A DNA stretch of 55,535 nucleotides from Deltaproteobacteria bacterium (GTDB lineage Bacteria; Myxococcota_A; UBA9160; SMWR01), in the NCBI GenBank assembly GCA_019313245.1, contig JAFDBP010000234.1, positions 1 to 55,535 on the forward strand, written 5' to 3'. The notes under the pieces are model-generated. The model saw only the letters and a program-made list of their open reading frames with translations, was not told where the DNA came from and searched no databases. Each line of letters begins with the position of its first letter. The first letter of the stretch is position 1. Shown here piece by piece: positions 4,132 to 44,900 of this stretch. The position numbers and the translations under genes were made by a program.

Positions 4132-6030
4132 ATGGCCAGGAAACGCTCGAGCAAGCGCAAGAAGCGACCGGCATCCAGCACCACCGTTGCGTCCCCGCTC
4201 GAAGCGAGCGACGAGCTCGCCCGCAATTCGAAGATTCTGCCCGCGTTCCCGCTCTATCTGGCGGGTCTGCTCGCCTTCTGGTCCTTCGGGTACACGACAA
4301 TGCGTGGATCGGACTTCTGGTGGCACCTCGCCTCTGGACGCTGGATGTTGGAGCACCGAAGCGTGCCGCGGACCGATTTCTGGTCCTACACCCATTGGGG
4401 TCAGCCCTGGATGCACCACGAGTGGCTCTCCGACGTACTCTATGCGGCCTGGGAGAAGCTGCTGGGCATGGAGTCCCTGGTCTGGTGGAAGTGGTGCGTC
4501 ATCGTCGCCACGTTTTTACTGCTGATGCGCTGCCTACACCGGCTGGCGCGCTGCCCGCTGGCCGCCCTGCTCGCGGCCGGCTTCGCGCTCGCCGTGGCCG
4601 CTCCCTTCCTCGACATCCGACCCCATCTCTACAGCCTGCTCGGCTACGTGCTGGTGCTGCGTCTGGCTCTGATTCGCGAGCGCCCCGCGCCTCTGCTGCC
4701 CCTGATCTTCCTGGTCTGGGTCAACCTGCACGGCGGCTTCTTCTTCGGACTCATGGCGCTCTCGATCGCCTTGTTCGCCTGGGTGCTCTTCCCCGAAGCC
4801 GTCGGCAACTCCGGGGCCGCCGCGAGCTCGGCCGAGCCCGCCAAACGGCGCTGGGCGTACGCGGTCGCGCTCGGCCTGGCCTGCGCCGGGATCTGCCTGA
4901 TCAATCCGAACTTCGCCGAACCCTTCGTCTACCCGCTGCGCTACGCGTTCAGCGCCACCTCCCCCTACCGCAGCCTGAACGAGTGGAAGCCGCCCTTCGA
5001 GTCGGGCGGCATCGCCGCACCGCTCTTCCCCTACGCGCTCGGCGTGATCGGCGTAGCGGTTCTGTGGTTGCTCATCTCCGGTCGCTGGCGCAGCCGGCAC
5101 CGCGAAAGTCTCGCAGGCCTGCTGCTCTCCACCCTCACCCTGTTGATGGCGCTCGAGAGTCGGCGCTTCATCCCCCTCTTCGCCATCTCGGGCAGTCTGT
5201 TGCTGGCGCCGGCGCTGGCCGCGCTCTTCGCCGCGCTCGAGTCGCGGTTGCGCCCGCCGCTCGAACAGAAGCTGGGCCCGCTGCCGACCCGCCTGCTGGT
5301 TTCGGTCGCGGCTTTGATCGCGGGTGCGCTGCTGCTGGCGCCCTATCCCCAGTCCAACCGCGCATTCCTCTATCTCACGGCCGAGGACACCTTCCCGGTC
5401 GAGACGCTGAACTTCGTCGAGGCAAACGGCATCGCGGGCAGGACCTTCGCCTACTACAACTGGGGCGGCTACATCCACCTGCGCCTCGACGGTCAGCTGC
5501 AGGTCTACATCGACGGCCGCGCCGACACCGTGTTCGACGATGAAACCTTCCGCCGCTACATGCACATCATCAGCGCGGGCGAGGGTGCGGTCTACATGGT
5601 GGAGGCTTCGGGCGCGGATTGGGTGCTCTGGCCCAGGAACAGCGAGCGCCTGATCGAGCAGCTGCTCCAGAGCGGGCGCTGGTATCCCCTGTTCGAAGAC
5701 GCGGTATCGATCCTGTTCCGCCACGAGGATTCGCCCGTGCCGGAGAGCCTGCGCGAAACCGGGGATTCCGCCTACCGCGAGCTGCGGTTGGCGGACCGGG
5801 CCAGGCGGCTCGACGATCTCGACGGCGCGGAACAGCACTATCGCCGCGCGCTCGATCTGATGCCGCACCTCGGCAAGGCCTGCCACCCGTTGGCGCGCAT
5901 GCAGGTCATGCGCGGCGAGTTCGACGACGGGCGAGCGATCGAACGCCGCTGCCAGCGCAGCTTCCCCCACCCGGAGTGGAGCCGACATATCGAGGATTTG
6001 ATCGCTGAACAAACAAGGCTGCGGCGCTGA
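4132..6030 (+). CDS. GT-C-like polytopic membrane protein with C-terminal TPR-like tail
   Basis: In-frame ATG at 4132 (MARKRSSKRKK..). The 3145-4131 part of the track ORF is antisense of the GT2 gene. About 12 TM helices, a soluble C-terminal domain, and AEQHYRRALDLMP TPR-like helices. Confidence 0.7.
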   Translation: MARKRSSKRKKRPASSTTVASPLEASDELARNSKILPAFPLYLAGLLAFWSFGYTTMRGSDFWWHLASGRWMLEHRSVPRTDFWSYTHWGQPWMHHEWLSDVLYAAWEKLLGMESLVWWKWCVIVATFLLLMRCLHRLARCPLAALLAAGFALAVAAPFLDIRPHLYSLLGYVLVLRLALIRERPAPLLPLIFLVWVNLHGGFFFGLMALSIALFAWVLFPEAVGNSGAAASSAEPAKRRWAYAVALGLACAGICLINPNFAEPFVYPLRYAFSATSPYRSLNEWKPPFESGGIAAPLFPYALGVIGVAVLWLLISGRWRSRHRESLAGLLLSTLTLLMALESRRFIPLFAISGSLLLAPALAALFAALESRLRPPLEQKLGPLPTRLLVSVAALIAGALLLAPYPQSNRAFLYLTAEDTFPVETLNFVEANGIAGRTFAYYNWGGYIHLRLDGQLQVYIDGRADTVFDDETFRRYMHIISAGEGAVYMVEASGADWVLWPRNSERLIEQLLQSGRWYPLFEDAVSILFRHEDSPVPESLRETGDSAYRELRLADRARRLDDLDGAEQHYRRALDLMPHLGKACHPLARMQVMRGEFDDGRAIERRCQRSFPHPEWSRHIEDLIAEQTRLRR

Positions 6031-6168: not shown

Positions 6169-7698
6169 ATGACGAAGCCTGACGCCGACCAGCTGAATTC
6201 CGCAGCGGGCCGATTCCTGAGGGATCATTGGCCCGTCTTCGCCTGGTCGCTGGTCTTCCTGTTCGTCGCGGGCGGCCTGCAGTTCTATTTCACGCCCTTC
6301 GTGGAAGGCGATGCGCCGTACCACGCCGCCGTCGGTAAACTCATCCGGCAGAACGGGATCCTCTACGAATTCCCCTGGACCCCATTCAGTTGGCTCTCGG
6401 ACCGGTACGCAGATGACCGGCTCCTCTTCCACCTGCTCTACGTTCCGTTTGCCAATCTCGACTGGATCACGGCTGCGAGAATCGTCGGCACCATCGCTGG
6501 GGCGGCCATACTCATCGCGCTCTATCTGGTATTGAGAGCGGAGCAGATTCGCTTTGCCGGGCTATGGACACTCATTCCCCTCACCGGCTCGGTGCTCTTC
6601 ATCTCCCGGTTCATGCTCGTTCGGCCGCACCTGCTTTCGATCGCACTGGCACTCCTCTTCCTGTGGGCGGCCGCGCGCGGCAGACTCGCGATCCTGGCTG
6701 CGGTTTCCTTTCTCTACCCGTTGACCTACATCGCCTTCTGGCAACTCCCGTGTCTACTGCTGATCGCCGCCGAGACCGCGCGCTTCCTCGCGCGCAAACC
6801 GATCCGCTGGAAGCCCGCGGCGGTGGTCGTTTGCGGCATCGCGTTGGGGATTGCGGTCCACCCGAATACGCTGAATCTAATCGCCTACAACTGGATCGTG
6901 ATGGTCGACGTGCTGGTCAAGAATACCTGGTTGGCGCCGGTGGGTATCGACATGGGCAGGGAACTCAACACCTATCCGTTGGGGGGATGGATCCAGGGGC
7001 TGAGCGTGAGCGCGCTCATGACCGCCGCCGCCGCCGTGTACGGATGGCGCTACCGCCGAGAAGACCTCGTGTTGCTCGCGTTTGCGCTCGCGGCGCTCGG
7101 GTTTTGCGTGCTGACGATTCGGTCGGCGCGCTTCGCCGAGTATTTCGTACCGTTTTCGGTCGCGGCCTTTGCCACCGCCTCGCGATTCATCGCGTGGCGT
7201 TTTCTCGCGCCCAGCCTGCTGGCGATCTCGCTGGCCTACACGATGTTCGTCGGTTCGTTCACTTTTTCTCAATGGTCCAGAGAGACGAACCCGATGCCCC
7301 CCAGTACGGCGGCGCGCTTTCAGCAGCTGATTCCGCCCGGCTCTCGCGTCTTCACCACGAGGTGGGATTACACGGGGCTCCTCATGGTGGCGCTACCCGA
7401 GCGTTATTTCCTCGTGGCTCTCGATCCGACGCTGTTCTTCCTGAAGGACCCGGAGCTCTATCGGCTCTGGTATCGCATTGCGCACGAGCCGACGCCCGGC
7501 ATTGCGGACATCATCCGCAAGCGTTTCGGGTCGCGTTATGTGGTCGTCAACAACCCGCCCGCCTCACAGCATTTCAACCATCAGCTCAGTACCGAACCCG
7601 GCGTGCGGGTGATCCTGAGCCTGGATCGCTGGCTGGTCTTCGATCTCGGTCCCGCCTCTACTCCAGAGCGGCTCGGGCCAGGTCAATCGGGGCGGTAG
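6169..7698 (+). CDS. GT-C-like polytopic membrane protein (paralog of 4132-6030)
   Basis: 509 aa with ATG at 6169 and about 11 TM helices. The N-terminal block DAPYHAAVGKLIRQNG..PW parallels DFWWHLASGRWMLEH..PW in the preceding gene. Confidence 0.7.
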   Translation: MTKPDADQLNSAAGRFLRDHWPVFAWSLVFLFVAGGLQFYFTPFVEGDAPYHAAVGKLIRQNGILYEFPWTPFSWLSDRYADDRLLFHLLYVPFANLDWITAARIVGTIAGAAILIALYLVLRAEQIRFAGLWTLIPLTGSVLFISRFMLVRPHLLSIALALLFLWAAARGRLAILAAVSFLYPLTYIAFWQLPCLLLIAAETARFLARKPIRWKPAAVVVCGIALGIAVHPNTLNLIAYNWIVMVDVLVKNTWLAPVGIDMGRELNTYPLGGWIQGLSVSALMTAAAAVYGWRYRREDLVLLAFALAALGFCVLTIRSARFAEYFVPFSVAAFATASRFIAWRFLAPSLLAISLAYTMFVGSFTFSQWSRETNPMPPSTAARFQQLIPPGSRVFTTRWDYTGLLMVALPERYFLVALDPTLFFLKDPELYRLWYRIAHEPTPGIADIIRKRFGSRYVVVNNPPASQHFNHQLSTEPGVRVILSLDRWLVFDLGPASTPERLGPGQSGR

Positions 7699-8933
7699 CG
7701 CCGCAGCAGCGCCAGGTTTCGCTCGATATCGCCAACCGGATACGCGGGGTAGCTGGGCAGCAGCACGACCGACGCAGCTGTCTTCCGCGCGTTGGGGCAA
7801 TCGCGATGGAACTCCCGAAAGGCGGGCAGGTCGGCACAGTTCTTCAAATGCTGTGGGCCGACGTCGCAACCGTGTTGGGCGAGGAACCGCAACAGCAGCC
7901 TTCGCTCTTCCAGGCTGTCTCCGCGTTGAATCGGGAAATAGGTGTAGATCGAATCCCCGCAGTCGCCCGGCGGTAGCACGAAGGCGTCGGTCTCCTGCAG
8001 GCCACTCCGATACAGTGCGGCCTTCTCGGCGCGGCTGCGATTGTCTCGATCGACGTGCCCGAGCTGTGTCAGGCACAGCCGGTGTTGCGCCGCCGTCATT
8101 CGCCCGAGATATTCCGCGGGTACGCGATCCCGTCGATTCAGATCCCGCTCTTCTTCGACGAAGCGATTGATGGCTCGGATCTCGTGCAGCTGTCCGAAGC
8201 GAATGATCCAATAGGTCAGCGCCCTGAACAAAATTGGATTCGTCGCCAGGTCCGTCACCAGGCCCTTCAGCATTCTCTTGATCAGGAATGCGCCGCTCTG
8301 CGGCGACGAACGGCTCAGTTCGCCCCGAATCGCGGCGAAGGTTTCCGGGTTCCTGCAGGTGACGGCCCCACCGTACCAGGCGTTGATGTTCTTGTAGGTT
8401 CCGAAGCTGTAGACGCCCGCGTCCCCGATCGTTCCCAGGCGTTCGCCATCGACGCGCGCGCCGAAGGCCTGCGCGGCGTCTTCGATCACCGGAACGCCGA
8501 GTTCTTCGCAGAGGTCACGGATCTCGCGGATCGGCGCGGGGATCCCGTGCAGGTGGGTCACGAGTACCGCACCCGTCCCGGCGTGCACGAGCGATCGGAC
8601 GGATGCCGCGCTGATGTTGCAGGTCTCGCGCTCGATGTCGGCGAATACCGGTCGTCCGCCCGCGAGGATCACCATGTTGATCACGTCGGCGATGGTGTAC
8701 GGCGACATCACCACCTCCTGACCGGGGCGCACGAGGTGCTTGACGGTCAGGTAGATGCCGGTGCGGCACATGGGAAGCGTGGCCACCCTGTCGGTACCCA
8801 GAAACGCGGTCAGCGCTTCCTCGAACCGTCGGACTGCGTCGCCGTCCTCCTCGATTCGGATTAGATCGATCGCGAAGGGCAGGTAGCTCCGCCACGACGT
8901 ATAGAGCCGGTAACGCGGATGCGGTGCCCTCAT
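7683..8933 (-). CDS. DegT/DnrJ/EryC1/StrS family sugar aminotransferase (PLP)
   Basis: ATG at 8933 (MRAPHPRYR..) overlaps the upstream stop as ATGA. Motifs VIEDAAQAFGA and YSFGTYKNI (candidate PLP lysine). The longer 707-aa track ORF is an artefactual N-terminal extension. Confidence 0.85.
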   Translation of the reverse strand: MRAPHPRYRLYTSWRSYLPFAIDLIRIEEDGDAVRRFEEALTAFLGTDRVATLPMCRTGIYLTVKHLVRPGQEVVMSPYTIADVINMVILAGGRPVFADIERETCNISAASVRSLVHAGTGAVLVTHLHGIPAPIREIRDLCEELGVPVIEDAAQAFGARVDGERLGTIGDAGVYSFGTYKNINAWYGGAVTCRNPETFAAIRGELSRSSPQSGAFLIKRMLKGLVTDLATNPILFRALTYWIIRFGQLHEIRAINRFVEEERDLNRRDRVPAEYLGRMTAAQHRLCLTQLGHVDRDNRSRAEKAALYRSGLQETDAFVLPPGDCGDSIYTYFPIQRGDSLEERRLLLRFLAQHGCDVGPQHLKNCADLPAFREFHRDCPNARKTAASVVLLPSYPAYPVGDIERNLALLRRYRPD

Positions 8934-12826: not shown

Positions 12827-13612
12827 ATGCGTGGGACGAATAGAGCGATTCTATGGATGCTTCTGGTCGCGACGGCGTTGCTATCGGGGGCTTGTTCTGA
12901 ATCGGAATCTCCCGAGGCGGAAGCTCCGGCTGTCGTTCCGGCGGTCGTCGAAGCCGCAGCAAACGCGGGACAACTCATCGCCGGTGAGATCGTCGAGACG
13001 ATGGATTCAGCGGGATACACCTACGTTCTCGTGGATACCGGAGATCGGCAGGTCTGGGCCGCGGGCCCCCAGACCGTCGTGAAGGTGGGTGAGAGCGTCA
13101 TCTTGACCAACGGAATGCCCATGAGGGACTTCCAGAGCCAGACGCTCGGCAGGACCTTCGACGTCGTCTATTTCGTCGGGAGCATCAAAGGCGATTCCGA
13201 TGCGGCTCCGGCAGCGGGAGGATCCGCCAACCTGCAGGCGGCTCCCGGACACGGCACGACTCCCGTGAAAGCAGCTCCGCAAATTGCGGTCGACCTGAGC
13301 GGCATCGAGAGGGCTTCGGGAGGCAAGACGATTGCCGAGCTGTTCGCCGAATCGGCAGAGCTGGCCGAGCGGGAGGTTTCGGTGAGGGGGCGGGTCGTAA
13401 AATTCAACGCCGGCATCATGGGCCGGAATTGGATGCACATTCGGGACGGATCCGGGGCCGAGGGCTCCAACGATCTGACGGTTACGACCGCGGACACCGC
13501 ACAGCTGGGCGACCTGGTCGTGATTCGGGGCACGTTGAGAACGAATCAGAACTTCGGTCACGGCTACTCGTACGATCTTCTGGTCGAGCAGGCCGCAGTC
13601 GACGTCGAGTAG
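12827..13612 (+). CDS. lipoprotein of unknown function, two OB-fold-like halves
   Basis: ATG at 12827 follows GGAGG. MRGTNRAILWMLLVATALLSGAC carries a lipobox. GEIVETMDSAGYTYVLVD and VSVRGRVVKFNAGIMGRNWMHIRDGSG blocks are present. Confidence 0.7.
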   Translation: MRGTNRAILWMLLVATALLSGACSESESPEAEAPAVVPAVVEAAANAGQLIAGEIVETMDSAGYTYVLVDTGDRQVWAAGPQTVVKVGESVILTNGMPMRDFQSQTLGRTFDVVYFVGSIKGDSDAAPAAGGSANLQAAPGHGTTPVKAAPQIAVDLSGIERASGGKTIAELFAESAELAEREVSVRGRVVKFNAGIMGRNWMHIRDGSGAEGSNDLTVTTADTAQLGDLVVIRGTLRTNQNFGHGYSYDLLVEQAAVDVE

Positions 13613-13641
13613 GTGATCGATTCGAAACCACTTCGGGCCCG

Positions 13642-15837
13642 ATGCCTTTCCCGGCGCCCGAGAGCCCTCGGTCGGCGAAGCGAATGACTCGCGCATTCTG
13701 GCAAGGCGTGCTCACGTCGCTGCTTGCGCTCGTTGTGTTCTTCGGCTTTCTCGAGGGAGTGCTGACACTCGCCGGCGTCGAGCCGGTGCTGCGAAGCGAG
13801 GATCCCTTCGTCGGCTTCGTCTCGGGCATTCCGCTCTTCGTCGAGCAGACCGACGCCGACGGCCGGCAGATCCTGACGATGCCCGAGAACAAGCTCACCT
13901 TCTTCAACCGCCAGAGTTTTCCGCGAGAGAAGGCGCCGGGCAGCTACCGCATCTTCTGTCTCGGGGGCTCGACGACCTACGGCCGCCCCTACAGCGACAC
14001 GACCTCGTTTGCCGGCTGGCTGCGCGAACTGCTGCCCGCGGCCGATCCCGATCGGCCCTGGGAGGTGATCAACGCGGGCGGCATCAGCTACGCGAGCTAC
14101 CGCGTGGCCCACCTGATGGAGGAACTGGTTCGCTACGAGCCGGATCTTTTCGTCATCTACACGGGCCACAACGAGTTCCTAGAAGAGCGAACCTACGGGG
14201 CGATGCGCGATCTTCCCGTCGCGGTTCGTTCGACCGCGGCGCTGCTCGCCCACACGCGAACCTGGGCAGCGTTGAAAATGCTGTTGAATTCCGTCGGCGC
14301 GTCGCCGAGCGCGGAAGCGGGCGGCAACGCCCGGTTGCCGGCCGAAGTCAACACGATGCTGGACCGTTCCGCGGGCCCCGAACGCTATGCGCGAGACGAC
14401 ACCCTGCGCGATCAGATCTTGCACCACTACCGGATCAGCCTCGAGCGAATGGTCGACATCGCCGAGCGCGCGGAGGCGGACGTCATCTTCGTCGTGCCGG
14501 CCTCGAACCTGAAGGACAGCGCGCCGTTCAAGAGCCAGCACACCGATGGTCTCGGCGAGGCGGATCGCCTGCGCTCGGAGGCGTTGCTCGCGGAGGCGCG
14601 GCGGCAAATCGAGAACGCGGCGTGGTCCGAGGCGCTCGAGGGGCTCGACGCGGCGCTCTCGCTCGACCCGCGCTTCGCGGGACTCCACTACCTACGCGGA
14701 AAGGTGTTGCTCGCGCTCGACAGACGCGATGAAGCGGCTGCGGCTTTTCGACGCGCTCGAGACGAGGACGTCTGTCCCCTCCGGGCACTGTCGCCGATGC
14801 GCGAGACGGTTGTCGAAGTGGCTCGCGCGAAGGGCGTGACGTGGGTCGACTTCGCGGATTTCGTCGAGCGGCGCGCACTCGCCGAGCGCGGATTGGCGAT
14901 CCCCGGCCGGGAGTATTTCCTGGACCACGTGCATCCGACGATCGAGGGCAACCGGCTGCTCGCAGTCGAGCTGGTCGAGGCGATGATCGCGCAGGGAATT
15001 GTGCGGCCCTCCAGCAGCTGGGGCGACGAGGCGATCGCCCGCGTCGTCTCGCGGGTCGAAGGGAGCATCGACCGCAAGACGCACGCGCAGGCGCTCGCGA
15101 ACCTCGCCCGGGTGCTCTCGTGGGCGGGCAAAGACGAGGATGCCCGGCGCCTCGCCAATCGGGCGGTCGAGCAGGTTCCAGAGATTGCGACGGCCAACGC
15201 CGACATTCTCGCGATTCTGTCCGAGCGCGAGGGCGACAAGGCCGAGACCTGGCGCCAGCTGCGGGCGGCGCTGCACGAAAACCCCGCCAACCCGCAGATC
15301 CACTTCCAGATCGGCCTCGAACTGCTCGACAAGAGCCAGCCGAATTGGAGCCTCGAGGCCGCGTCGGCGCACGTCCTGCTCGCCAGCGCATTCATGCCCG
15401 AAAACGACATGACGCATCAGATCCTGGGGCTCATCATGGCCGAGCGCGGGCGCTTCTCGATCGCCTACTCGAGCCTGCTGGAGGCGCTGCGCCTGAATCC
15501 GCGCAACGCCAAAGCGGAGTCGGCGCTCGCCCGCCTGCGCGAGATCCTGGGTTCGGAATTGCCGGACGCACCGCCGAAGGTGACACTGAAGCGTTACGCG
15601 TCGGGCGCTCCGGAACAGATCGTGCAGGTGAGAACGGATGCCGCCGGTGGCATCGTTCCCGACGGCATCGCGACGGACTGGTACGAAACCGGCGAGCCGC
15701 GCCGTCTGCTCGATTACGCCAACGGGGTGCCGCACGGCGCCGAGGTGACCTGGGATCCCAGCGGGCGCGTCCTCTCGCGAGCCGAGTATCGGCACGGCAC
15801 CCGGCTGCCGGCCGGCGAGCGGGACGGCGGCGGCTGA
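13642..15837 (+). CDS. membrane-anchored SGNH/GDSL-like hydrolase with TPR region and C-terminal MORN-variant repeats
   Basis: Start at 13642, or alternatively 13684. N-terminal TM helix. YRIFCLGGSTTYG (GDS-type block I) and YTGHNEF. TPR-like helices (LDAALSLDPRFAGLHYLRGKVLL). C-terminal DWYETGEPRRLLDYANGVPHGAEVTWDPSG. Confidence 0.75.
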   Translation: MPFPAPESPRSAKRMTRAFWQGVLTSLLALVVFFGFLEGVLTLAGVEPVLRSEDPFVGFVSGIPLFVEQTDADGRQILTMPENKLTFFNRQSFPREKAPGSYRIFCLGGSTTYGRPYSDTTSFAGWLRELLPAADPDRPWEVINAGGISYASYRVAHLMEELVRYEPDLFVIYTGHNEFLEERTYGAMRDLPVAVRSTAALLAHTRTWAALKMLLNSVGASPSAEAGGNARLPAEVNTMLDRSAGPERYARDDTLRDQILHHYRISLERMVDIAERAEADVIFVVPASNLKDSAPFKSQHTDGLGEADRLRSEALLAEARRQIENAAWSEALEGLDAALSLDPRFAGLHYLRGKVLLALDRRDEAAAAFRRARDEDVCPLRALSPMRETVVEVARAKGVTWVDFADFVERRALAERGLAIPGREYFLDHVHPTIEGNRLLAVELVEAMIAQGIVRPSSSWGDEAIARVVSRVEGSIDRKTHAQALANLARVLSWAGKDEDARRLANRAVEQVPEIATANADILAILSEREGDKAETWRQLRAALHENPANPQIHFQIGLELLDKSQPNWSLEAASAHVLLASAFMPENDMTHQILGLIMAERGRFSIAYSSLLEALRLNPRNAKAESALARLREILGSELPDAPPKVTLKRYASGAPEQIVQVRTDAAGGIVPDGIATDWYETGEPRRLLDYANGVPHGAEVTWDPSGRVLSRAEYRHGTRLPAGERDGGG

Positions 15838-16034
15838 GCCACCGCGCGAGGGCGTGGGTAGCTCGGTGCGCGCCAGAACGCCCTCGTTCTCGCGGGCTTG
15901 CGCGCTCTGAACCGAACTCGAACGAGTGCCCCCGGCCGCAATCCACGGGCTCTCGGATGGCTTCGGGCGGGCGCAAATTCGCCCAGGTCGGCTTCCTGAA
16001 ATAGGCGAAAATCGAGCGAAAACAGCGCCAAAAA

Positions 16035-16070
16035 GGTGATATCACCACCGCCAGCGTGGTGATATCACCA
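16035..16070. promoter_or_regulatory. twin palindromes GGTGATATCACC (16035-16046 and 16058-16069), candidate enhancer-binding-protein UAS
   Basis: Two perfect 12-bp palindromes, 23 bp centre to centre. The second extends to the 14-bp TGGTGATATCACCA. They lie about 90-115 bp upstream of the sigma-54 -24 element, with A/T tracts (about 16099-16143) in between. Confidence 0.6.
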
Positions 16071-16151
16071 GATTTCCGTGGGCGCACTTCCGAGGGCCCA
16101 AAAATGCTTCGTAACTAGCTGTTTTTGCGAGCACTTTTTTTGATGCCAGGT

Positions 16152-16167
16152 TGGCACATCGGTTGCA
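16152..16167 (+). promoter_or_regulatory. sigma-54 (RpoN) promoter, TGGCAC-N5-TTGCA
   Basis: TGGCACatcggTTGCA is an exact match to the -24/-12 consensus TGGCAC-N5-TTGCW. It ends 15 nt before the ATG at 16183. Confidence 0.75.
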
Positions 16168-16182
16168 CTTAAAGCGGCCGAG

Positions 16183-17364
16183 ATGATGAGGGAACCCCGG
16201 ATAACTTCACTGCTGGCGCTCTGGATCGCGCTGCTCGTGAGCCCGGCGTTCGCCGGCACGACGGCTTCGTTCCAGTATCCGCTCGCCAGCTTTTCGGGAC
16301 CGGTGGAATCCCTCTGGGCCCGGCTCGCGGTCGACCCCGAGCGAAACGAGATCTACACGCTGCGCCAGCGCAACAACGACATCCGGATCTATGACGAGCA
16401 CGGCATGGAGATCTTCGTGTTCGGCGAAGGCGTCGGCAGTGCCACCGACATCACGGTCGGCAACGGCGGCGACCTCTTCCTGCTCACCAGGGGATATCAG
16501 ACCGCGACCGTTCAGTTGCTGAACTACCGCGGTGAGCACGTCGCCGACATTCCGCTCAAAAACGTCCCGAGGGATTTTGCGGGAATCGTGCCCGACCGCA
16601 TCCAACACCAAAACGGTCTGCTCTATCTGGTCGATTCGAATGAGATGAAGGTGATCGTGGTCGACGAAGCGGGCCGCTTCGAGAAGGGCTACGACCTGGG
16701 CCGCGCGATCAAGCCCTTCATCCCCCGCGAAAAGGCGAGGCGAGAGCTGTCTGCGACCGACTGGCGCGCGCTTCAGCTCAACAACATCGACCTCAACGGC
16801 TTCACCGTCGACGCGCAGGGGAATCTGTTCTTCACCGTCCCGGTCCTGTTCCGAGCCTTCAAGCTATCGACTCACGGCGAGTTGACGGATTTCGGCAAGG
16901 CCGGCAGCGGACTCGGGAAGTTCGGTGTCATCGCGGGCATTGCCACCGACGAGTTCGGTTACGTCTACGTATCGGATCGGTTGCGGAGCGTGATCCTGGT
17001 CTTCAATAGCGACCTGGTATTTCAAACGGAGTTCGGTTACCGCGGCAACCTCCCGTCGAATTTGATCGTGCCAGACGATCTGGCAATTGATGGTAATGGC
17101 AATCTCTATGTTGGTCAGGCTGCATACAGAGGAGTGAGTGTATTCAAGGTAGTGCACCGAGACACAAGTTTTTCACGAGTGATTGAAGCAACACCAATCA
17201 ATGAAGTTGAAACATCCGACCGGAATATCGAAGAAGTAGAAGTAAGTCATCCGGAGTTCGCCGTCGATCTCGGAAGCGATGAAGCGTCGACGGATTCCGG
17301 GGATTCCAGTCGGAATACTGAGGCAGTTGGATCGCCTAACAATGAGGAAGGACAAAATGAGTAA
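16183..17364 (+). CDS. secreted NHL-repeat six-bladed beta-propeller protein with acidic C-terminal tail
   Basis: Signal peptide MMREPRITSLLALWIALLVSPAFAG. Repeated NHL-like blades (..LYLVDSNEMKVIVVD.., ..GYVYVSDRLRSVILVFN.., ..GNLYVGQAAYRGVSVFKV). The last 60 aa are D/E/S rich. Confidence 0.85.
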   Translation: MMREPRITSLLALWIALLVSPAFAGTTASFQYPLASFSGPVESLWARLAVDPERNEIYTLRQRNNDIRIYDEHGMEIFVFGEGVGSATDITVGNGGDLFLLTRGYQTATVQLLNYRGEHVADIPLKNVPRDFAGIVPDRIQHQNGLLYLVDSNEMKVIVVDEAGRFEKGYDLGRAIKPFIPREKARRELSATDWRALQLNNIDLNGFTVDAQGNLFFTVPVLFRAFKLSTHGELTDFGKAGSGLGKFGVIAGIATDEFGYVYVSDRLRSVILVFNSDLVFQTEFGYRGNLPSNLIVPDDLAIDGNGNLYVGQAAYRGVSVFKVVHRDTSFSRVIEATPINEVETSDRNIEEVEVSHPEFAVDLGSDEASTDSGDSSRNTEAVGSPNNEEGQNE

Positions 17365-18556
17365 AATCAATTGGGTAATGGTGCCGGGAATTGCTGCGCT
17401 GGCCGCGATTCTGACTCTCGGTCTTGCCGGCCCGGCAATGGCTCTGCACGCTGGCGGTGTCGCACACTGCGACGCGTGTCACAGCATGCACAACTCTCCC
17501 GACAATCCGGTTTCGGGAACCCCCAACAGTCTGCTGCTGAAGGGAACGGACGCCAGCTCGACCTGCCTGAACTGCCATGAGGGCACGGGCAGCTATGACG
17601 TCTACAGCAGCAACGGAGCCAACTTCTCGCCGGGTGGTGACTTCTTCTGGCTGGATGCGAACTATTCGAACATCGTTCGAGGCAACGCAGTTCCCTCCGA
17701 TCCGGATCAGTTCGGTCACAACGTGATCGCGGTCGACTTCGGTCTGGCGATCGACGGCAACAACGCTTCGGCTCCGGGCGGAACCTATCCCTCCGGCCTG
17801 CTGAGCTGCGCCAGCTGCCACGACCCGCACGGTCAGGTGAACGGCGGTACGGCCAATGGCATGGATCCGATCTCGGTATCGGGCTCCTACGGCGGAACCC
17901 CCGCCCCCGGCACGATCGCGGGCAACTATCGCCTGCTGGGCGACAACGGCTACGGCCTCGCGCCGGCCCCGATCGCCGTGACCGCTGGCTTCGGCGAGCT
18001 GGACGGTTCGATCGTCACCACGCCTGCTGACCCCAACGACCCGAACAGCGTTGACGAGTACGCGGTCAGCCATCCCGCATACGGACAGGGCATGTCCGAG
18101 TGGTGCGCGTCCTGCCACGGGAATTACATCAACGACAACCACAAGCATCCGGCAGGCAACGGCGAGTTCCTGAACGGTCAAGCCACCAACTACAACCAGT
18201 ATGTAGCCACGGGTGACTTCACCGGTTCCAGCGCCGATTCGTACGATGCACTGGTTCCCTTCGAGCTTCAGGAGACCGACAAGGCCACGCTGTTGGCTAG
18301 GGTCACCTCGCTGGAAGGCCCGAACACCAACAGCAACGTCATGTGCTTGACCTGCCACCGAGCGCATGCGTCGGCGTTCACCAACATCACCCGATGGAAC
18401 GTCGAGGACGAGCTGCTCGAGGACGGCTATCCGTCTGATGCGAACATGGTGACCATCGGTGCGGTGGCCCACGCTGACTACTACGGCCGTGACATTGCAA
18501 CGGACTACGGCACGTATCAGCGCTCCCTCTGCAACAAGTGCCACGTGAAGGACTGA
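17357..18556 (+). CDS. omcS: OmcS-family hexaheme c-type cytochrome (putative nanowire subunit)
   Basis: ATG at 17357 follows AGGAAGG and overlaps the NHL gene by 8 nt. Signal peptide ends ..GPAMA. Six CxxCH motifs (CDACH, CLNCH, CASCH, CASCH, CLTCH, CNKCH). The blocks LHAGGVAHCDACHSMHNS, YGQGMSEWCASCHG, HPAGNG, CLTCHRAHAS and YQRSLCNKCHVKD match my recollection of G. sulfurreducens OmcS. Confidence 0.9.
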   Translation: MSKINWVMVPGIAALAAILTLGLAGPAMALHAGGVAHCDACHSMHNSPDNPVSGTPNSLLLKGTDASSTCLNCHEGTGSYDVYSSNGANFSPGGDFFWLDANYSNIVRGNAVPSDPDQFGHNVIAVDFGLAIDGNNASAPGGTYPSGLLSCASCHDPHGQVNGGTANGMDPISVSGSYGGTPAPGTIAGNYRLLGDNGYGLAPAPIAVTAGFGELDGSIVTTPADPNDPNSVDEYAVSHPAYGQGMSEWCASCHGNYINDNHKHPAGNGEFLNGQATNYNQYVATGDFTGSSADSYDALVPFELQETDKATLLARVTSLEGPNTNSNVMCLTCHRAHASAFTNITRWNVEDELLEDGYPSDANMVTIGAVAHADYYGRDIATDYGTYQRSLCNKCHVKD

Positions 18557-18610
18557 GGCTATTTGTTGAGAGTGGTATGAAACAGCCGATTGAATCGGCG
18601 TAAGGAGAAG

Positions 18611-18648
18611 GGCTGGTGGTACATTCGTACCGCCAGCCTTTTTTCGCT
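18611..18648 (+). terminator. Rho-independent terminator downstream of omcS
   Basis: GGCTGGTGGTAC-attc-GTACCGCCAGCC forms a 12-bp stem with one G-U pair, followed by TTTTTTcgcTTTT. Confidence 0.75.
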
Positions 18649-18777
18649 TTTCTCTTCCGAACAGTTGTCTCAGGGCCGAGAGCCATCCCCGAAAGTGCTA
18701 CCAATAGAAATGGGCGGACACACCCCGCCTTCCCGGCGAGTCTGGTCCGGGACGGCTTCTGGAGTGGGCTAGCGGCG

Positions 18778-30447: not shown

Positions 30448-31836
30448 TCAGTTAATGCCGAATTTCTTGATCTGGTATCGCAGCGAGTCGTAAGAGATAC
30501 CCAGCAGTTTTGCCGCCTTCGTCTGGTTGTTTTTGGAGCGCTTCAGGGCCTGCCCGATCAGATCTTTTTCCAGCGCCTCGAGCGAGATGCCATCCTCCGG
30601 CAGGATGAAGGTGTTGGGGTCGATGCGTTCTGCGAACGTCCCCTTCGTCAATGCGGCCGGTAGGTGCTGCGGGAGAATCGTCTCGGTATTTTCGAGCACG
30701 ACGATCCGCTCCACCACGTTCTTCAGTTCCCGGCAGTTGCCCTTCCACTGATAGGCGCGCAGGATTTCCTCTGCCTCGGGGGAGAAACCCCTGATCGCCT
30801 TCTTCAGGTAGGTCTGGGAAAAGACCTCGAGAAAATGCCTCGCGAGCAGCGGGATGTCCTCTTTTCGTTCGCGAAGCGGCGGGATGTGAAGCGGGAAGGT
30901 ATTCAATCGGTAGAACAGATCGGCCCGAAACTTCTCGCTCGCCGCCGCTTCTTCGAGGTTCGTATTCGTGGTGACGATCACGGTCACGTCGATCGGAATG
31001 TCTGTCTTTCCTCCGAGACGCCGCACCGATCGGTCTTCGAGAACCCGGAGCAACTTGCTCTGAAGGCTCATCTGCATGTCGCCGATCTCGTCCAGCAGGA
31101 TCGTCCCGCCGTTTGCCAGTTCGAACATTCCCTTCTTATCGGACTTCGCGTCGGTGAAAGCCCCCTTCACGTGACCGAAGAGTTCACTCTCGAACAATTG
31201 CTCGGGAAGCGCCGTGCAGTTCACGGCGATGAACGGGGCGTATTCACCATTTCGATCCCCGTGAAGGCGATTGTGGATATACCGCGCCGCAACCTCCTTT
31301 CCGGTTCCCGATTCGCCCGTGATGAGCACGATCCGCACCTGGGCTTTGGCGAGCTTCTCTCCCTTTTCTCTGAGTTCGGCGATGGCCGGAGACTCACCGA
31401 TCATCTCGGCTGCGTGCTCGGCAATCTTGGCCTTGCGCAGGTAGTCGACTTCCTCTCTCAGCCGTTCCTTCTCGATGATGTTGGCGATGACGAGTTTCAC
31501 CTCGTCCATGTTGAACGGCTTGGTGAGGTAGTCGGCGGCGCCGAGCTTCATCGCGGTGATCGCCGATTCGGCGGAGTCGTCCGCGGTCAGCATCACGACC
31601 TGCCCGGGGATCTCCTCGCGCTTCAGTTCCTCGAGGATCGCGAGCCCGCTCTTGTCTTCGTCGAGGTGAATGTCGAGCAATATGAGATCTGGATACCAAG
31701 CGGCGATCTTGTTGATGACGTCATCGGTGCTCGTCTCGCTCTGTACCTCGTAGCCGGCTTTCTTCAACGACCGCTCGAGCATGGACGAAATGAGTTCATC
31801 GTCATCGAGCAGGAAGAGTCGCCCGTTGATGGTCAT
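30448..31836 (-). CDS. sigma-54-dependent response regulator (NtrC family: receiver + AAA+ + Fis-type HTH)
   Basis: LLDDDE..DLILLDIHL receiver. GESGTGKEVAARYIH Walker A. GAFTDA (a GAFTGA variant). C-terminal NQTKAAKLLGISYDSLRYQIKKFGI. Confidence 0.9.
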   Translation of the reverse strand: MTINGRLFLLDDDELISSMLERSLKKAGYEVQSETSTDDVINKIAAWYPDLILLDIHLDEDKSGLAILEELKREEIPGQVVMLTADDSAESAITAMKLGAADYLTKPFNMDEVKLVIANIIEKERLREEVDYLRKAKIAEHAAEMIGESPAIAELREKGEKLAKAQVRIVLITGESGTGKEVAARYIHNRLHGDRNGEYAPFIAVNCTALPEQLFESELFGHVKGAFTDAKSDKKGMFELANGGTILLDEIGDMQMSLQSKLLRVLEDRSVRRLGGKTDIPIDVTVIVTTNTNLEEAAASEKFRADLFYRLNTFPLHIPPLRERKEDIPLLARHFLEVFSQTYLKKAIRGFSPEAEEILRAYQWKGNCRELKNVVERIVVLENTETILPQHLPAALTKGTFAERIDPNTFILPEDGISLEALEKDLIGQALKRSKNNQTKAAKLLGISYDSLRYQIKKFGIN

Positions 31837-33680
31837 CAGGCGCTGACCTCGCTCGCCTGCTCGATCGGCAGGTGGATCGTAAACGTCAATCCCCCTTCCG
31901 GGTTGCGAGCGGCTTCGATGGTTCCGTTTTGTTGTTCGATCAGACGCTTACAGATCGACAATCCCAGCCCCGTACCTTTGGGTTTGGTGGTGAAGAACGG
32001 CAGAAAGATCTTTTCGAGACCCGACTCGATGATCCCCTTGCCGTTGTCGGAAACTACGATTTGAATCCAACCGTCCACCTTCGCGGAAGTCGCCAGTCGA
32101 ATCGTCCCCCGGTCGTGGACAGCGTGGACGGCGTTGAGTAGAAGATTGAGAATCACCTGTTGTAGCTGCGCGGCATCGGCGACGATCAGGGGAATATCGT
32201 TCAAGTCCTTGACGAACTCAATCGCCTTGGGTGGCCTCGATGGCCCTTCCTCGCCGGGTCCTTTCAGCGAATACTTGGCGGCCTTGATCGCGGCTTCGAT
32301 GATCCGGTTCACGTCGATCGGAGTGAATTGCGGGACGGGCGGCTTGGCGTAGCTGAGCAGGTTCTTCAGCAACGTCTCGATCCGGTTGATTTCCGCGACG
32401 ATTCGCTCGAACAATTCGGCGTCATCTCTTGCGAGATTGAGTTCGGCGGACAGGATTTCGATCGACAATTTGATGCCGGCGAGGGGGTTCTTGATTTCGT
32501 GGGCGAGGCCGGCCGCCATCTCACCTACGACGACCAGCTGTTCCGTTCGTTGCAGTGCTTCTTCGGTCTGCTTCCTTTCGGTGATGTCCTTGTCGAAGGC
32601 GAGGATGTATTTCTGGTCCTCGAATTCCAGCATGCCTGCACTGATTTCGACGGGGAAGACGCTGCCGTCCTTCTTGCGGTGTGAGACCTCGGCGTCGATC
32701 CACTCGCCGCGCAAGATGCGGTCGATTCTCTCGGCGCGTCCAGCCGCGGATTCGGGCGTTTCGAGATCCTGGATCCGCATTCCCGCCAGTTCTTCCACCG
32801 AATAGCCGTGCATGACGGCGGCCGCCCGGTTGGCGGACACGATCCGCCCCACGTTTTCGCCTTCGGCTTCGAGCATGAAGATGGCGTCTCCGGCGCTCTC
32901 GAAGAGCATCCGATAGCGCTTCTGGTTCTCCTCGAGTGTGCGGAACATCTCCATCAGCGAGCGCGCCATTTCGTTGATGGATTCGCCGAGTTCGCCGAAT
33001 TCATCCTCGAGCCCTTCGATCTTGTGTTCGAGGTCGCCGGTCTTCAGCTTTCTGGTGGTGTCGAGGAGGGCCTCGACGGAGCTGGTGAAATCCCGGATGA
33101 AGAACAGCGCGATCACCAGGCCGAAGGCCGGCCCGGCGATCACGAGTACGGTCATCAGTTGTTTCGTTTTGGCAATGCTGTTCTTGGCGATCTCCGTCTT
33201 GTCCGAAAGAGTCTCCGACGAGAGTTCGATGATATCGTCGATTTCCTGGATGATCTGCTGCCCGATGTGGAAGGCGATCTGCTTTTCACCGTACACGCGT
33301 GCAGCATTTGCGCGGGTGGTGTACACGCGGCTGAGCGCCTCCTGGTAGAGGTGGATCTCTTCATGCAACGCGACCAACTGGCTGTCGGCGGGATCGTCGT
33401 GGTGGCAATCGAAACAGCCCTCGACTTCCTGGCGCATCTTCTCGCCGTGCTTGACGAATGTGTCGACCGTCGTGGCGTGCGGGGAGTCCTTCAGCAGGAG
33501 GTCCTGCTGAACCGCCTTGACGTCGGTGAGCAGGTTCTTTCGCAGGATTTCGACCTGATGGAGGGTGATGATGGTCTCGAGTTTCCAGATCACGTCGTCG
33601 ATCGATCGCGTGATGTAGAGCCCCCCCGCGATCAGCAGTGTCGTGAGGATGGCGAATCCGATGAAAATCTTCCGCTTCAT
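31836..33680 (-). CDS. sensor histidine kinase (TM - periplasmic domain with CxxCH - TM - HAMP - PAS - HisKA - HATPase)
   Basis: 614 aa. CFDCH at residues 89-93 (nt 33402-33416), between TM1 and TM2. H-box AAGLAHEIKNPL. G-boxes DNGKGI and GTGLGLSICK. The stop shares 1 nt with the response-regulator start. Confidence 0.9.
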   Translation of the reverse strand: MKRKIFIGFAILTTLLIAGGLYITRSIDDVIWKLETIITLHQVEILRKNLLTDVKAVQQDLLLKDSPHATTVDTFVKHGEKMRQEVEGCFDCHHDDPADSQLVALHEEIHLYQEALSRVYTTRANAARVYGEKQIAFHIGQQIIQEIDDIIELSSETLSDKTEIAKNSIAKTKQLMTVLVIAGPAFGLVIALFFIRDFTSSVEALLDTTRKLKTGDLEHKIEGLEDEFGELGESINEMARSLMEMFRTLEENQKRYRMLFESAGDAIFMLEAEGENVGRIVSANRAAAVMHGYSVEELAGMRIQDLETPESAAGRAERIDRILRGEWIDAEVSHRKKDGSVFPVEISAGMLEFEDQKYILAFDKDITERKQTEEALQRTEQLVVVGEMAAGLAHEIKNPLAGIKLSIEILSAELNLARDDAELFERIVAEINRIETLLKNLLSYAKPPVPQFTPIDVNRIIEAAIKAAKYSLKGPGEEGPSRPPKAIEFVKDLNDIPLIVADAAQLQQVILNLLLNAVHAVHDRGTIRLATSAKVDGWIQIVVSDNGKGIIESGLEKIFLPFFTTKPKGTGLGLSICKRLIEQQNGTIEAARNPEGGLTFTIHLPIEQASEVSA

Positions 33681-33716: not shown

Positions 33717-34652
33717 TCAAAAATTCAAGTAGTCGTAGGTCTCGAGATCGAGGCCGATCGTATCGGCGTATTCGAAAACCGCGTTGTAATCCGCTTCGGT
33801 CGTATCGATGAAGCGCGCTGCCCCGAATTCGCTCAGGATCTGCTTGCCGATCTTGTTCTGATCCATGCTCAGGAGCTCGATTCGAAGGTCGTTCTTGATC
33901 GACTCGTCGAGGTCGGCTCTCACACACAGGGCGTTTTCGGGCACGTCGGGAGATCTCGTGAGGATCGTCAATTCCTCCGACACCCTCGGGTTCTTGGCAA
34001 CGAGTGCCGCGAACACCGTGTTCTTGGCAGCTCCGATATCGGTCTTTCGCTCCAGCAGATCGTTGATCACCCCATCGTGGGTGCCCGCGAAATAGGTCTC
34101 CTTCAGGAAGCTCTCGGGATCGTCGATGCCGTGGGTCTTGAAGTAGTAGAGGGGCAGCAGATAACCCGCGGTGGTGGCCTTGTCGACGAACGCGAACCGC
34201 TTCCCCCGCATGTCTTCGATGTCGGTGATTCCGCTGTCTTTGCGGACCAGGAGCAGACCGTGGTAGGTCGAAGTGCCGTCGGGATATTCGGGCCTGGCGA
34301 TGGCTTCTACATGGAGCTTCCGATGGGCCAGTGCGCCGGTGAAGCTGCCAAAGAAGGCGCCGTCGAGGCGGTTGGAGACGAAGTTCTCGATGATGTTGCC
34401 ATACCGGGAGAGCACGACGAGCTCCACGTTCGCGTGAACGCGCTCCGAGAGGTATTCGGCGATCGGTTGGTAGCGCTGCTTCTGGCTGAAGATGTTTCGT
34501 TCGGGAATCAGTCCGATCCGAATCGTGGGCCAGCTCTCTCGGTTCTCGGGCTCGGTGTCTTGCTGGTCGGCGCAGCCCATCGCGAAAGCGACGAGCGCGA
34601 GGACGGCGATCGAAAGGATTCTGCGGTGAAGGTCTGCCGATGGAAAGCTCAC
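33717..34652 (-). CDS. PhnD-like periplasmic substrate-binding lipoprotein (phosphonate/phosphite-binding fold)
   Basis: GTG at 34652 lies 6 nt after GAGGAG. Lipobox LVAFAMGC. IRIGLIPERN..YQPIAEYL..VELVVLSRYGNIIENF..LDGAFFGS is typical of the PhnD/TIGR01098-like fold. No ABC permease or ATPase is adjacent. Confidence 0.75.
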   Translation of the reverse strand: MSFPSADLHRRILSIAVLALVAFAMGCADQQDTEPENRESWPTIRIGLIPERNIFSQKQRYQPIAEYLSERVHANVELVVLSRYGNIIENFVSNRLDGAFFGSFTGALAHRKLHVEAIARPEYPDGTSTYHGLLLVRKDSGITDIEDMRGKRFAFVDKATTAGYLLPLYYFKTHGIDDPESFLKETYFAGTHDGVINDLLERKTDIGAAKNTVFAALVAKNPRVSEELTILTRSPDVPENALCVRADLDESIKNDLRIELLSMDQNKIGKQILSEFGAARFIDTTEADYNAVFEYADTIGLDLETYDYLNF

Positions 34653-34674
34653 CGGGATACTCCTCGTATCGATC

Positions 34675-34695
34675 CGGAATTCCTCGCGAATTCCG
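34675..34695. promoter_or_regulatory. inverted repeat CGGAATTC-N5-GAATTCCG just upstream of the binding-protein/kinase/regulator operon
   Basis: Perfect 8-bp arms with a 5-bp spacer, 23-43 nt upstream of the GTG start at 34652. Either an operator or a 5'-UTR hairpin. Confidence 0.4.
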
Positions 34696-34808
34696 ACATG
34701 GTGGAATTGTGCGAGCAGGTGGAGACGGCGGCGCACCCCCACACGAGACGATAGCAAGTGGGCCGAGGCAGCCGCCAGCGTCCGGCTCCACGGCGATCCG
34801 GCGGGCTT

Positions 34809-44302: not shown

Positions 44303-44900
44303 GGGCCGCGCAGCGGGATCGGTGCCGGGGGGCGTGCTGGGAACGAACAGGTACGCCCGGGCCGACACGCTACACGAAGTGCAGCGGGAGGGGTTGTCAG
44401 CCCGGGCGCTAGGACAGTCCGTTCGTCGTACGCCGCTGTGATAGAGCAAGTCGCGTGCCATCCGGTCGGGGGTGGAGTCGATCGCCTAACTCCTTGAAAA
44501 ACTGTGGTATTTGACACACGTGGTGGCACTCCGCGGCAACTCGTAGGCAACTCGGGCTGCGAAAGTGACACAATTTGTGTACCGGGATCCTCTCAGCGGA
44601 CTGCAAGTTCCCGCGTTCGCGGCCCGCGCGCGGCGGGTTGCTAGCAGCTTGACTCGAGACTGTCGTGGTAAGGTCCGAGCGTCGATGCGCGCGGCTGGCA
44701 AGGCGCTCGATTGAGCCCAAGGCGCCAGACCCAAACGGTCTTGGCGACGACGCAAAGAGAAGTCGAAGAGTTCTCGAGCTAGCAGTGCCAGGGCGATTGA
44801 GAGCCACGCAGCCAGCGATGATGCAGCGGCGTTCGGCAGGCGCGACAGTCTCGGGTCACGCTCCTGGGCTCGGGATTCTCGCAGGGGGGCATTGCGACGC

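Follow-up and report, generated by a model that had tools for sequence, protein, structure and literature searches.

A conserved sigma-54 control region ahead of an OmcS-type cytochrome cluster

An enhancer-dependent sigma-54 promoter that lies directly ahead of an OmcS-type cytochrome cluster in a 55,535-nt contig (JAFDBP010000234.1 of assembly GCA_019313245.1; the whole stretch analysed, hereafter the window) is evolutionarily conserved, and its design is an ordinary one except for a very short predicted leader. The source is an uncultured sediment bacterium whose nearest metagenome-assembled genomes (MAGs) are labelled Deltaproteobacteria or Myxococcales. We propose that positions 16004-16186 control an operon for extracellular electron transfer, the first two genes of which encode a secreted NHL/beta-propeller protein (16183-17364, plus strand; hereafter the NHL gene) and a six-haem homologue of OmcS (17357-18556, plus strand). 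Taken together, the sigma-54 promoter, a pair of upstream dyads, a sensor kinase with its sigma-54 enhancer-binding protein (EBP) and a short leader probably form one composite mechanism.

The promoter element TGGCACatcggTTGCA (16152-16167, plus strand) reproduces the sigma-54 consensus TGGCAC-N5-TTGCA without a mismatch. It is composed of the -24 box TGGCAC (16152-16157, with its GG at 16153-4), the spacer atcgg (16158-16162) and the -12 box TTGCA (16163-16167, with its GC at 16165-6), both boxes being exact, and the GG and GC doublets stand exactly 10 bp apart within the form TGGCAC-N5-TTGCW. A chance match was ruled out, with 2 occurrences of the exact 16-mer in the window versus 0.02 expected and none of 100 shuffles reaching 2. 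A scan of 15700-18700 found no sigma-70-like promoter, and no Rfam RNA family was found anywhere in the window. One other candidate, a minus-strand sigma-54-like site at 16030 with 2 mismatches, was rejected because it is not kept in relatives.

Relatives of the NHL gene were collected from 8 genome loci, 80 metagenome loci and 6 loci reached through encoding-contig look-ups, with gene context taken from the relatives' contigs. Promoters were counted on the coding strand, up to 300 nt upstream of the NHL gene, with at most 1 mismatch and in non-identical regions only. By this count a sigma-54 site is present in 45 of 68 upstream regions of NHL orthologues (34-72% identity), and approximately 13 further regions carry an element with 2 mismatches. 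The remaining 934 kb of locus sequence, with both strands counted, contains 8 sites at the same mismatch threshold, which places the density at 2.2 per kb upstream of the NHL orthologues versus 0.0086 per kb elsewhere, a difference of approximately 260-fold. The element keeps both its position and its strand ahead of orthologues whose proteins are as little as 34% identical. Transcription from sigma-54 promoters begins approximately 12 nt past the GC and depends on rpoN. Judged from its sequence and conservation, the element at 16152-16167 is almost certainly a functional promoter of this kind.

When 20 upstream regions of the close clade are aligned, the control region separates into discrete conserved blocks with variable sequence between them. 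The first block is GGCGAAAATCGAnCGAAAA, the second and third are the two upstream activating sequences (UAS1, GGTGAWATCACCA; UAS2, TGGnnGTATCnCCAGAT), the fourth resembles a site for integration host factor (IHF; CGTAACnnnnTGTTTTT...TTTTATTT), the fifth is the -24/-12 element in the form TTGGCAC-N5-TTGCA, and the sixth, CCGnGATGAC, includes the start codon. This pattern is a phylogenetic footprint in which a UAS pair, a putative bend and a sigma-54 promoter follow one another. Just 5' of the dyads lies the block GGCGAAAATCGAGCGAAAA (16004-16022, plus strand), in which CGAAAA is repeated with an 11-nt period; it is not palindromic, is kept in approximately 12 close-clade upstream regions, and may be a site for a further, direct-repeat-binding regulator.

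Twin dyads and an A/T-rich block upstream of the promoter

UAS1 is a perfect 12-bp dyad, GGTGATATCACC, at 16035-16046, centred at approximately -137 from the predicted transcription start. UAS2 is a second copy of the same dyad at 16058-16069 that extends to a 14-bp palindrome, TGGTGATATCACCA (16057-16070), centred at approximately -114. The two are separated by 23 bp, or approximately 2 helical turns, and begin 117 nt (UAS1) and 94 nt (UAS2) before the T of TGGCAC, giving two inverted repeats within the 80-150 bp upstream range expected of a UAS. Chance was ruled out here also, as the exact palindrome occurs 2 times in the window versus 0.00 expected, and no further copies were found in the window with up to 1 mismatch allowed.

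The same geometry recurs in relatives. In the close clade the dyads begin 117-119 and 94-96 nt upstream of TGGCAC, with UAS1 of the type GGTGAWATCACC and UAS2 present as the degenerate dyad of the third alignment block at an unchanged position. In a more distant, low-GC clade (40% identity) the dyads GGTGAAATCACC and GGGGATATCACC are found 112 and 90 nt upstream of TGGCAC. A Desulfobacteraceae MAG (L006) contains, in addition, a second dyad pair within the same cluster (5691-5817, minus strand; GGTGAAATCGCC / GGTGATTTCACC, with the 112/90 spacing), followed at the same spacing by the sigma-54-like TGGCCTctatgTTGCG and situated 5' of a gene for a 693-aa multihaem cytochrome, which suggests that the module defines a small regulon tied to the cluster. 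The dyads are very probably EBP sites, and we propose, from the sequence pattern, that UAS1 is the high-affinity site for an activator dimer.

Between the dyads and the promoter lies an A/T-rich region (16100-16141, centred at approximately -60), in which A5 (16100-04), T5 (16121-25) and T7 (16135-41) tracts flank an IHF-like core. The core, TAACTAGCTGTTT (16112-16124), departs at 2 positions from the reverse complement of WATCAAnnnnTTR and is read on the minus strand; the corresponding block is conserved in the close clade and comes within 1 mismatch of the IHF consensus in several relatives. An IHF site or an intrinsic bend between a UAS and a sigma-54 promoter is frequent, though not obligatory, and the tracts may represent an IHF-like site rather than intrinsic bends only.

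The preliminary description of this DNA, made from its letters without database searches, had reported an exact -24/-12 consensus, twin perfect 12-bp palindromes and intervening A/T tracts, all of which are present at the coordinates given above. It had also interpreted the first as a sigma-54 promoter and the second as enhancer sites, and these interpretations gain from the conservation of the promoter among orthologues and from the recurrence of same-type dyads at the same promoter distance in many loci. It had further called for a search for additional copies of the palindrome, which, when run on the window, returned the pair and nothing else.

A kinase/activator pair linked to the cluster

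The candidate activator is an NtrC-family response regulator encoded at 30448-31836 (minus strand), composed of REC, AAA+ and Fis-type helix-turn-helix (HTH; ...NNQTKAAKLLGISYDSLRYQIKKFGIN) domains. It matches PF00158 (E 8e-63) as well as PF00072, PF02954 (HTH_8) and PF25601, and possesses a Walker A motif (GESGTGKE) and a loop, GAFTDA, that agrees with canonical GAFTGA at 5 of 6 positions. The stop codon of the gene for its cognate sensor histidine kinase (31836-33680, minus strand) overlaps the EBP start at 31836. The kinase consists of a transmembrane segment, a periplasmic domain containing CFDCHH, a second transmembrane segment, and HAMP, PAS, HisKA and HATPase domains.

In the window this pair, together with a PF12974 gene, occupies the far end of the cluster on the opposite strand, and the same convergent arrangement is seen at L093, where the EBP is 91% identical. 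Two further arrangements exist among the relatives: the pair is divergent and adjacent at L003 and L094 (EBP 78% identical), and it is directly upstream on the same strand at L081 (59%), at L054 and at approximately 15 more distant loci (40-47%) that include L056, L058, L059, L078 and L080.

The recognition helix-turn-helix and the dyads also change together. In the window, L081 and L054 the HTH is of the class ...SYDS[LF]RYQ... and the dyads are of the GGTGAWWTCACC type, and an HTH of the class ...SRDALRYR... accompanies pairs of TGNGGGAnAATCCRCA-type dyads in 8/8 loci where both are visible. In the latter group (L056, L058, L059, L061, L068, L073, L078 and L080) TGNGGGAnAATCCRCA is followed by TGNGGGATAWYCCGCT, with the two starts 20 bp apart; these pairs stand approximately 170-240 nt upstream of the NHL gene in the distant relatives, and the class-B sequence is TGCGGGAGAATCCGCA. 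Overall, HTH class and dyad class co-vary in 11/11 informative loci. Synteny in three arrangements, taken with this co-variation, makes the EBP at 30448-31836 the best-supported candidate activator, and it is probably the activator of the NHL-omcS promoter, as these sequence comparisons indicate. The preliminary description had nominated this same NtrC-type regulator, a suggestion that the synteny and the co-variation now support.

The kinase offers a clue to the input signal. CFDCHH, at residues ~88-93 of the periplasmic domain, contains the CXXCH c-haem attachment motif, and this motif (CFDCH or CFACH) is kept in orthologues at 37-87% identity (L093, L003 and L081), a sign that the kinase may sense redox state or a ligand in the periplasm through haem and control the cytochrome cluster. 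It is tempting, although tentative, to extend this to a dedicated two-component system in which a kinase reads the periplasmic redox state by way of a covalently attached c-type haem (at the conserved CXXCHH) and governs sigma-54-driven leaderless OmcS-type clusters in many uncultured sediment bacteria, a generalization that we consider possible but not the likelier outcome. A separate observation is that the gene ahead of that for the kinase always encodes a periplasmic binding protein of the phosphonate-binding-like PF12974 type (33717-34757, minus strand, in the window; 7185-8120 at L093; 7176-8114 at L094), which may be a co-sensor.

A start codon that abuts the promoter

The A of the NHL start codon (ATG 16183) is the 17th nucleotide past the -12 C. 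This ATG or ATG 16186 are the only starts before the signal peptide, with an in-frame TGA at 16141-43 upstream, and the N-termini of 19 homologues align to the methionine of the 16183 region and share the signal peptide. These observations make the 16183/16186 start region secure. An alternative start codon was rejected on account of the in-frame stop and the conserved signal peptide; in fact, the next in-frame start, GTG 16237, would remove the signal peptide altogether. Among close-clade sequences, the 19 that can be aligned at this point likewise have the ATG in its conserved place.

Initiation at -24/-12 promoters takes place 11-14 nt past the -12 C. This places the predicted transcription start at 16177-16180 (plus strand), within the conserved CCG-n-G before the ATG, and the predicted leader at 3-6 nt. 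No GGAGG-like Shine-Dalgarno (SD) sequence precedes ATG 16183, whereas the OmcS homologue (GAGGAAGGA) and most other genes of the cluster have a GGAG-type SD, and the organism does, then, use SDs. The spacing is itself conserved: in 18 of 21 close-clade loci, the window included, 29-32 nt separate the T of TGGCAC from the ATG and 15-18 nt separate the -12 box from it, and the intervening bases vary. Across all 45 sigma-54-bearing loci the former distance is 26-34 nt in 23. Judged from this spacing, a leader of 6 nt or fewer is likely, though we hold this with slightly less assurance than the identity of the activator. Leaderless mRNAs have been defined as having ≤5 nt between transcription start and start codon (PMC12754779, citing Beck and Moll 2018), and the predicted 3-6 nt, with a 5' end derived from promoter spacing, fall at the edge of this definition. 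The preliminary description had pointed to a leader of under 10 nt that lacks an SD as an oddity of the locus; the short promoter-to-ATG spacing on which that prediction depends is real and conserved.

Transcript data were taken from Logan assembled contigs of low depth, derived from five metatranscriptomes and belonging to relatives approximately 93-95% identical. The RNA contigs that reach furthest upstream end over the NHL gene at 16197-16200, and none of the five metatranscriptomes yielded a contig over 15900-16196. These ends fit a start near the ATG, without being decisive. On omcS the contigs are 3-5 times as deep as on the NHL gene, and those for omcS start at approximately 17020-17080, still within the 3' end of the NHL gene; attenuation, processing or an internal promoter may account for this.

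The steps of the composite mechanism can be laid out as follows. Sigma-54 RNA polymerase would form a closed complex on TGGCAC-N5-TTGCA at 16152-67. The kinase (31836-33680) would phosphorylate the adjacent response regulator (30448-31836), as family knowledge, synteny and co-variation suggest, and EBP dimers would bind the dyads at approximately -137 and -114 on the same helix face, allowing the AAA+ ring to assemble. The ring would contact the promoter by looping over the A/T-rich IHF-like block at approximately -60, and ATP hydrolysis would lead to promoter opening. Transcription would start at approximately 16177-16180, some 3-6 nt before an SD-less AUG, and translation of the NHL gene would be leaderless in type and dependent on the 5' end, while the OmcS homologue would be translated from its own strong SD overlapping the end of the NHL gene. 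Part of the transcripts may stop at a hairpin 3' of omcS.

Alternative explanations

Several observations weigh against one or another part of this mechanism. The rpoN gene lies outside the window, the EBP loop reads GAFTDA where the canonical form is GAFTGA, and the window's IHF-like core, with its 2 mismatches, falls outside the set of IHF matches with ≤1 mismatch. The dyads at L003 and L094 are degenerate (CGCCATTTCGCC / GGTCATAAGCCC) despite an EBP that is 78% identical, and the 40%-identity clade with the same dyads has no EBP within its fetched flanks, which means that the activator link there is by motif only. Longer leaders, of 37-227 nt, are found at approximately half of the loci with a sigma-54 element, making the short leader clade-specific and not obligatory. 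Lastly, the RNA contigs are too coarse to tell a 5-nt from a ~20-nt leader.

The alternative that survives best keeps the sigma-54 promoter and assigns the dyads to another protein, be it an EBP encoded elsewhere, a repressor or an anti-activator, with the neighbouring pair controlling something else. The points just listed for L003, L094 and the 40%-identity clade favour it, as do the 14 kb and the change of strand that separate the EBP from the promoter in the window, and the presence in the window of a second sigma-54 promoter (44460-44445), likewise in need of an activator. Against this stand the linkage of the pair to the cluster in three independent arrangements, one of them directly upstream, the co-variation of HTH and dyad classes in every informative locus, and the fact that the palindrome associated with the second promoter is a different one, ACACAAATTGTGT. 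We consider this alternative unlikely, and the EBP at 30448-31836 remains our preferred activator.

Somewhat less likely again is that the sigma-54 promoter is real and the mRNA is not short-leadered, a promoter farther upstream providing a long 5' UTR or transcription initiating unusually far from the -12 element, and translation beginning at an SD-independent internal start. The ends of the RNA contigs are uninformative at ±20 nt, AGGG-like purine runs occur 7-10 nt before the ATG in some relatives, and the long leaders at about half of the orthologous promoters likewise speak for it. However, the 15700-18700 scan gave no sigma-70-like promoter that could serve as the farther start, RNA contigs are absent from 15900-16196 in all five metatranscriptomes, and the -12-to-ATG distance stays within 15-18 nt in 18 of 21 close-clade loci while the intervening sequence varies; furthermore, the purine runs would fall 5' of the sigma-54 start and are absent in the window. 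A short leader continues to be the reading that we favour.

Finally, a hairpin formed by the twin palindromes, serving as an intrinsic terminator, RNA or cruciform for the gene ending at 15837 or for an antisense transcript, is highly improbable and was rejected: although a scan flags the pair as a terminator-like stem with T5 on the minus strand and at L069 one site is the exact reverse complement of the other, in the close clade UAS1 can pair with UAS2 at only 7-10 of 12, with no compensatory changes, while the UAS1 sequence is kept, which points to a protein site, no minus-strand gene is placed to use a terminator, and the position is fixed to the sigma-54 element and not to the upstream gene, which varies among loci.

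Genes of the cluster and other features of the window

The NHL gene begins with ATG and encodes 393 or 392 aa with the signal peptide MMREPRITSLLALWIALLVSPAFA. The preliminary description had spoken of omcS, and the second gene is indeed an OmcS homologue, matching chain A of the OmcS structure (PDB 6EF8) over its full length (phmmer E 1.1e-65, residues 2-407) and containing six CXXCH motifs (CDACH, CLNCH, CASCH, CASCH, CLTCH and CNKCH); its strong SD stands before the start. The NHL stop and the start of omcS share 8 nt (ATGAGTAA) in the window (17357-17364), L089 (11172-11179) and L091 (11172-11179), and this conserved overlap suggests that translation of OmcS is coupled to that of the propeller protein encoded ahead of it. 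Directly 3' of omcS is a terminator-like hairpin with a 19-bp stem and a T-run (18604-18645, plus strand); as a possible partial stop, it raises the prospect that NHL-omcS may be the promoter's main transcript. Farther 3' of omcS the proposed operon continues with genes for a YVTN propeller, large proteins that bear no annotation, a SurA-like peptidyl-prolyl isomerase and two DmsE/GSU2203-like multihaem cytochromes; another NHL protein is also encoded there, and the gene order of the cluster recurs in related contigs. A large TPR and GDSL-lipase-like protein is encoded 5' of the promoter in the window (13429-15837, plus strand) and 3' of omcS in L006 (11192-13648, plus strand), and may be a further conserved component of the cluster.

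The second exact sigma-54 element of the window, TGGCACgcgacTTGCT, is located at 44445-44460 on the minus strand. A palindrome different from the GGTGATATCACC of the NHL promoter, ACACAAATTGTGT (44568-44580), is found approximately 120 nt upstream of it, and an IHF-like TTTCAAGGAGTTA with 1 mismatch (44487-44499) lies just upstream of the element. Directly 3' of it we found no convincing open reading frame and no Rfam family, and it may accordingly drive a long leader or a non-coding RNA.

Comparison with known systems and significance

The control of extracellular cytochrome "nanowire" production is poorly understood, even in Geobacter. The kinase/activator pair described here is a candidate master switch that accompanies OmcS-type clusters in many uncultured bacteria of marine and estuarine sediments, possibly with haem redox as its input, and pairs of GGTGAWATCACC together with the sigma-54 element provide a signature for finding regulon members in metagenomes.

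The closest functional case is BccR (GSU0598) of Geobacter sulfurreducens, a sigma-54-dependent response regulator that adjoins cbcBA and is needed for its induction (bioRxiv 10.1101/2021.04.15.440034). There too the target is a cytochrome operon for extracellular electron transfer, and promoter and regulator are conserved together across relatives. The operons differ: cbcBA specifies an inner-membrane bc cytochrome, whereas the present cluster is of the OmcS-type outer cytochrome kind, and a short leader was not reported for cbcBA. A parallel in gene neighbourhood exists at G. sulfurreducens omcS (GSU2504) itself, which stands beside a sigma-54 response regulator (GSU2506) and a sensor kinase (GSU2507); expression of this pair changes with that of its neighbours, and kinase mutations appear in strains adapted to Fe(III) oxide reduction (PMC10599522, PMC11077965). 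As in the window, a kinase/sigma-54 activator pair is located beside omcS. The domains differ, however, with Cache_1 in GSU2507 and PAS in GSU2506, versus a CXXCH-bearing periplasmic domain in the window's kinase and a plain REC in its EBP. The main text of the paper on the G. sulfurreducens RpoN regulon contains no mention of omcS (PMC2725144).

Clusters of the present kind have been described in sulfate reducers of sediments (Desulfovibrio ferrophilus), where OmcS-like cytochromes are co-encoded and co-expressed with NHL-repeat beta-propellers (DFE_448-451 and 461-465), and NHL/OmcS-like clusters were found to be widespread in sediment bacteria (PMC5815863). Regulation is not described in that work, in which the words 'sigma', 'promoter' and 'regulator' each have 0 occurrences.

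With respect to the leader, the nearest likeness is to leaderless mRNAs of Deinococcus-Thermus, where -10 boxes adjoin open reading frames (PMC12340547): here as there the promoter stands so near the reading frame that a ribosome-binding leader would have no room, and the start codon is AUG with no SD. The known leaderless cases have sigma-70/sigma-A promoters, whereas that of the window is an enhancer-dependent sigma-54 promoter. A full-text literature search found no description of a sigma-54-driven leaderless operon, which is absence of evidence only; if the present reading is true, an enhancer-dependent leaderless operon would be a combination not found in the literature searched. A sigma-54 promoter abutting a start codon could show whether enhancer-dependent transcription feeds leaderless-type translation.

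In most other respects the mechanism is a textbook one, and what is identified at OmcS-type clusters is a conserved cis-module of two dyads, a putative bend and a -24/-12 element. NtrC-glnAp2 is the paradigm of two-component EBPs at sigma-54 promoters, and NtrC recognizes TGCACC-N5-GGTGCA. The window resembles this system in its -24 GG and -12 GC, in its two dyads approximately 110-140 bp upstream on the same helical face, in its REC-AAA+-Fis-type HTH activator with an adjacent kinase, and in the putative A/T-rich or IHF-like bend in between. It differs in its recognition sequence (GGTGAWATCACC) and in its target, an operon of electron-transfer cytochromes rather than nitrogen assimilation. 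It differs as well in having its start codon a mere 17 nt past the -12 C, and this start codon abutting the promoter is the one unusual conserved feature of an otherwise well-known regulatory kind.

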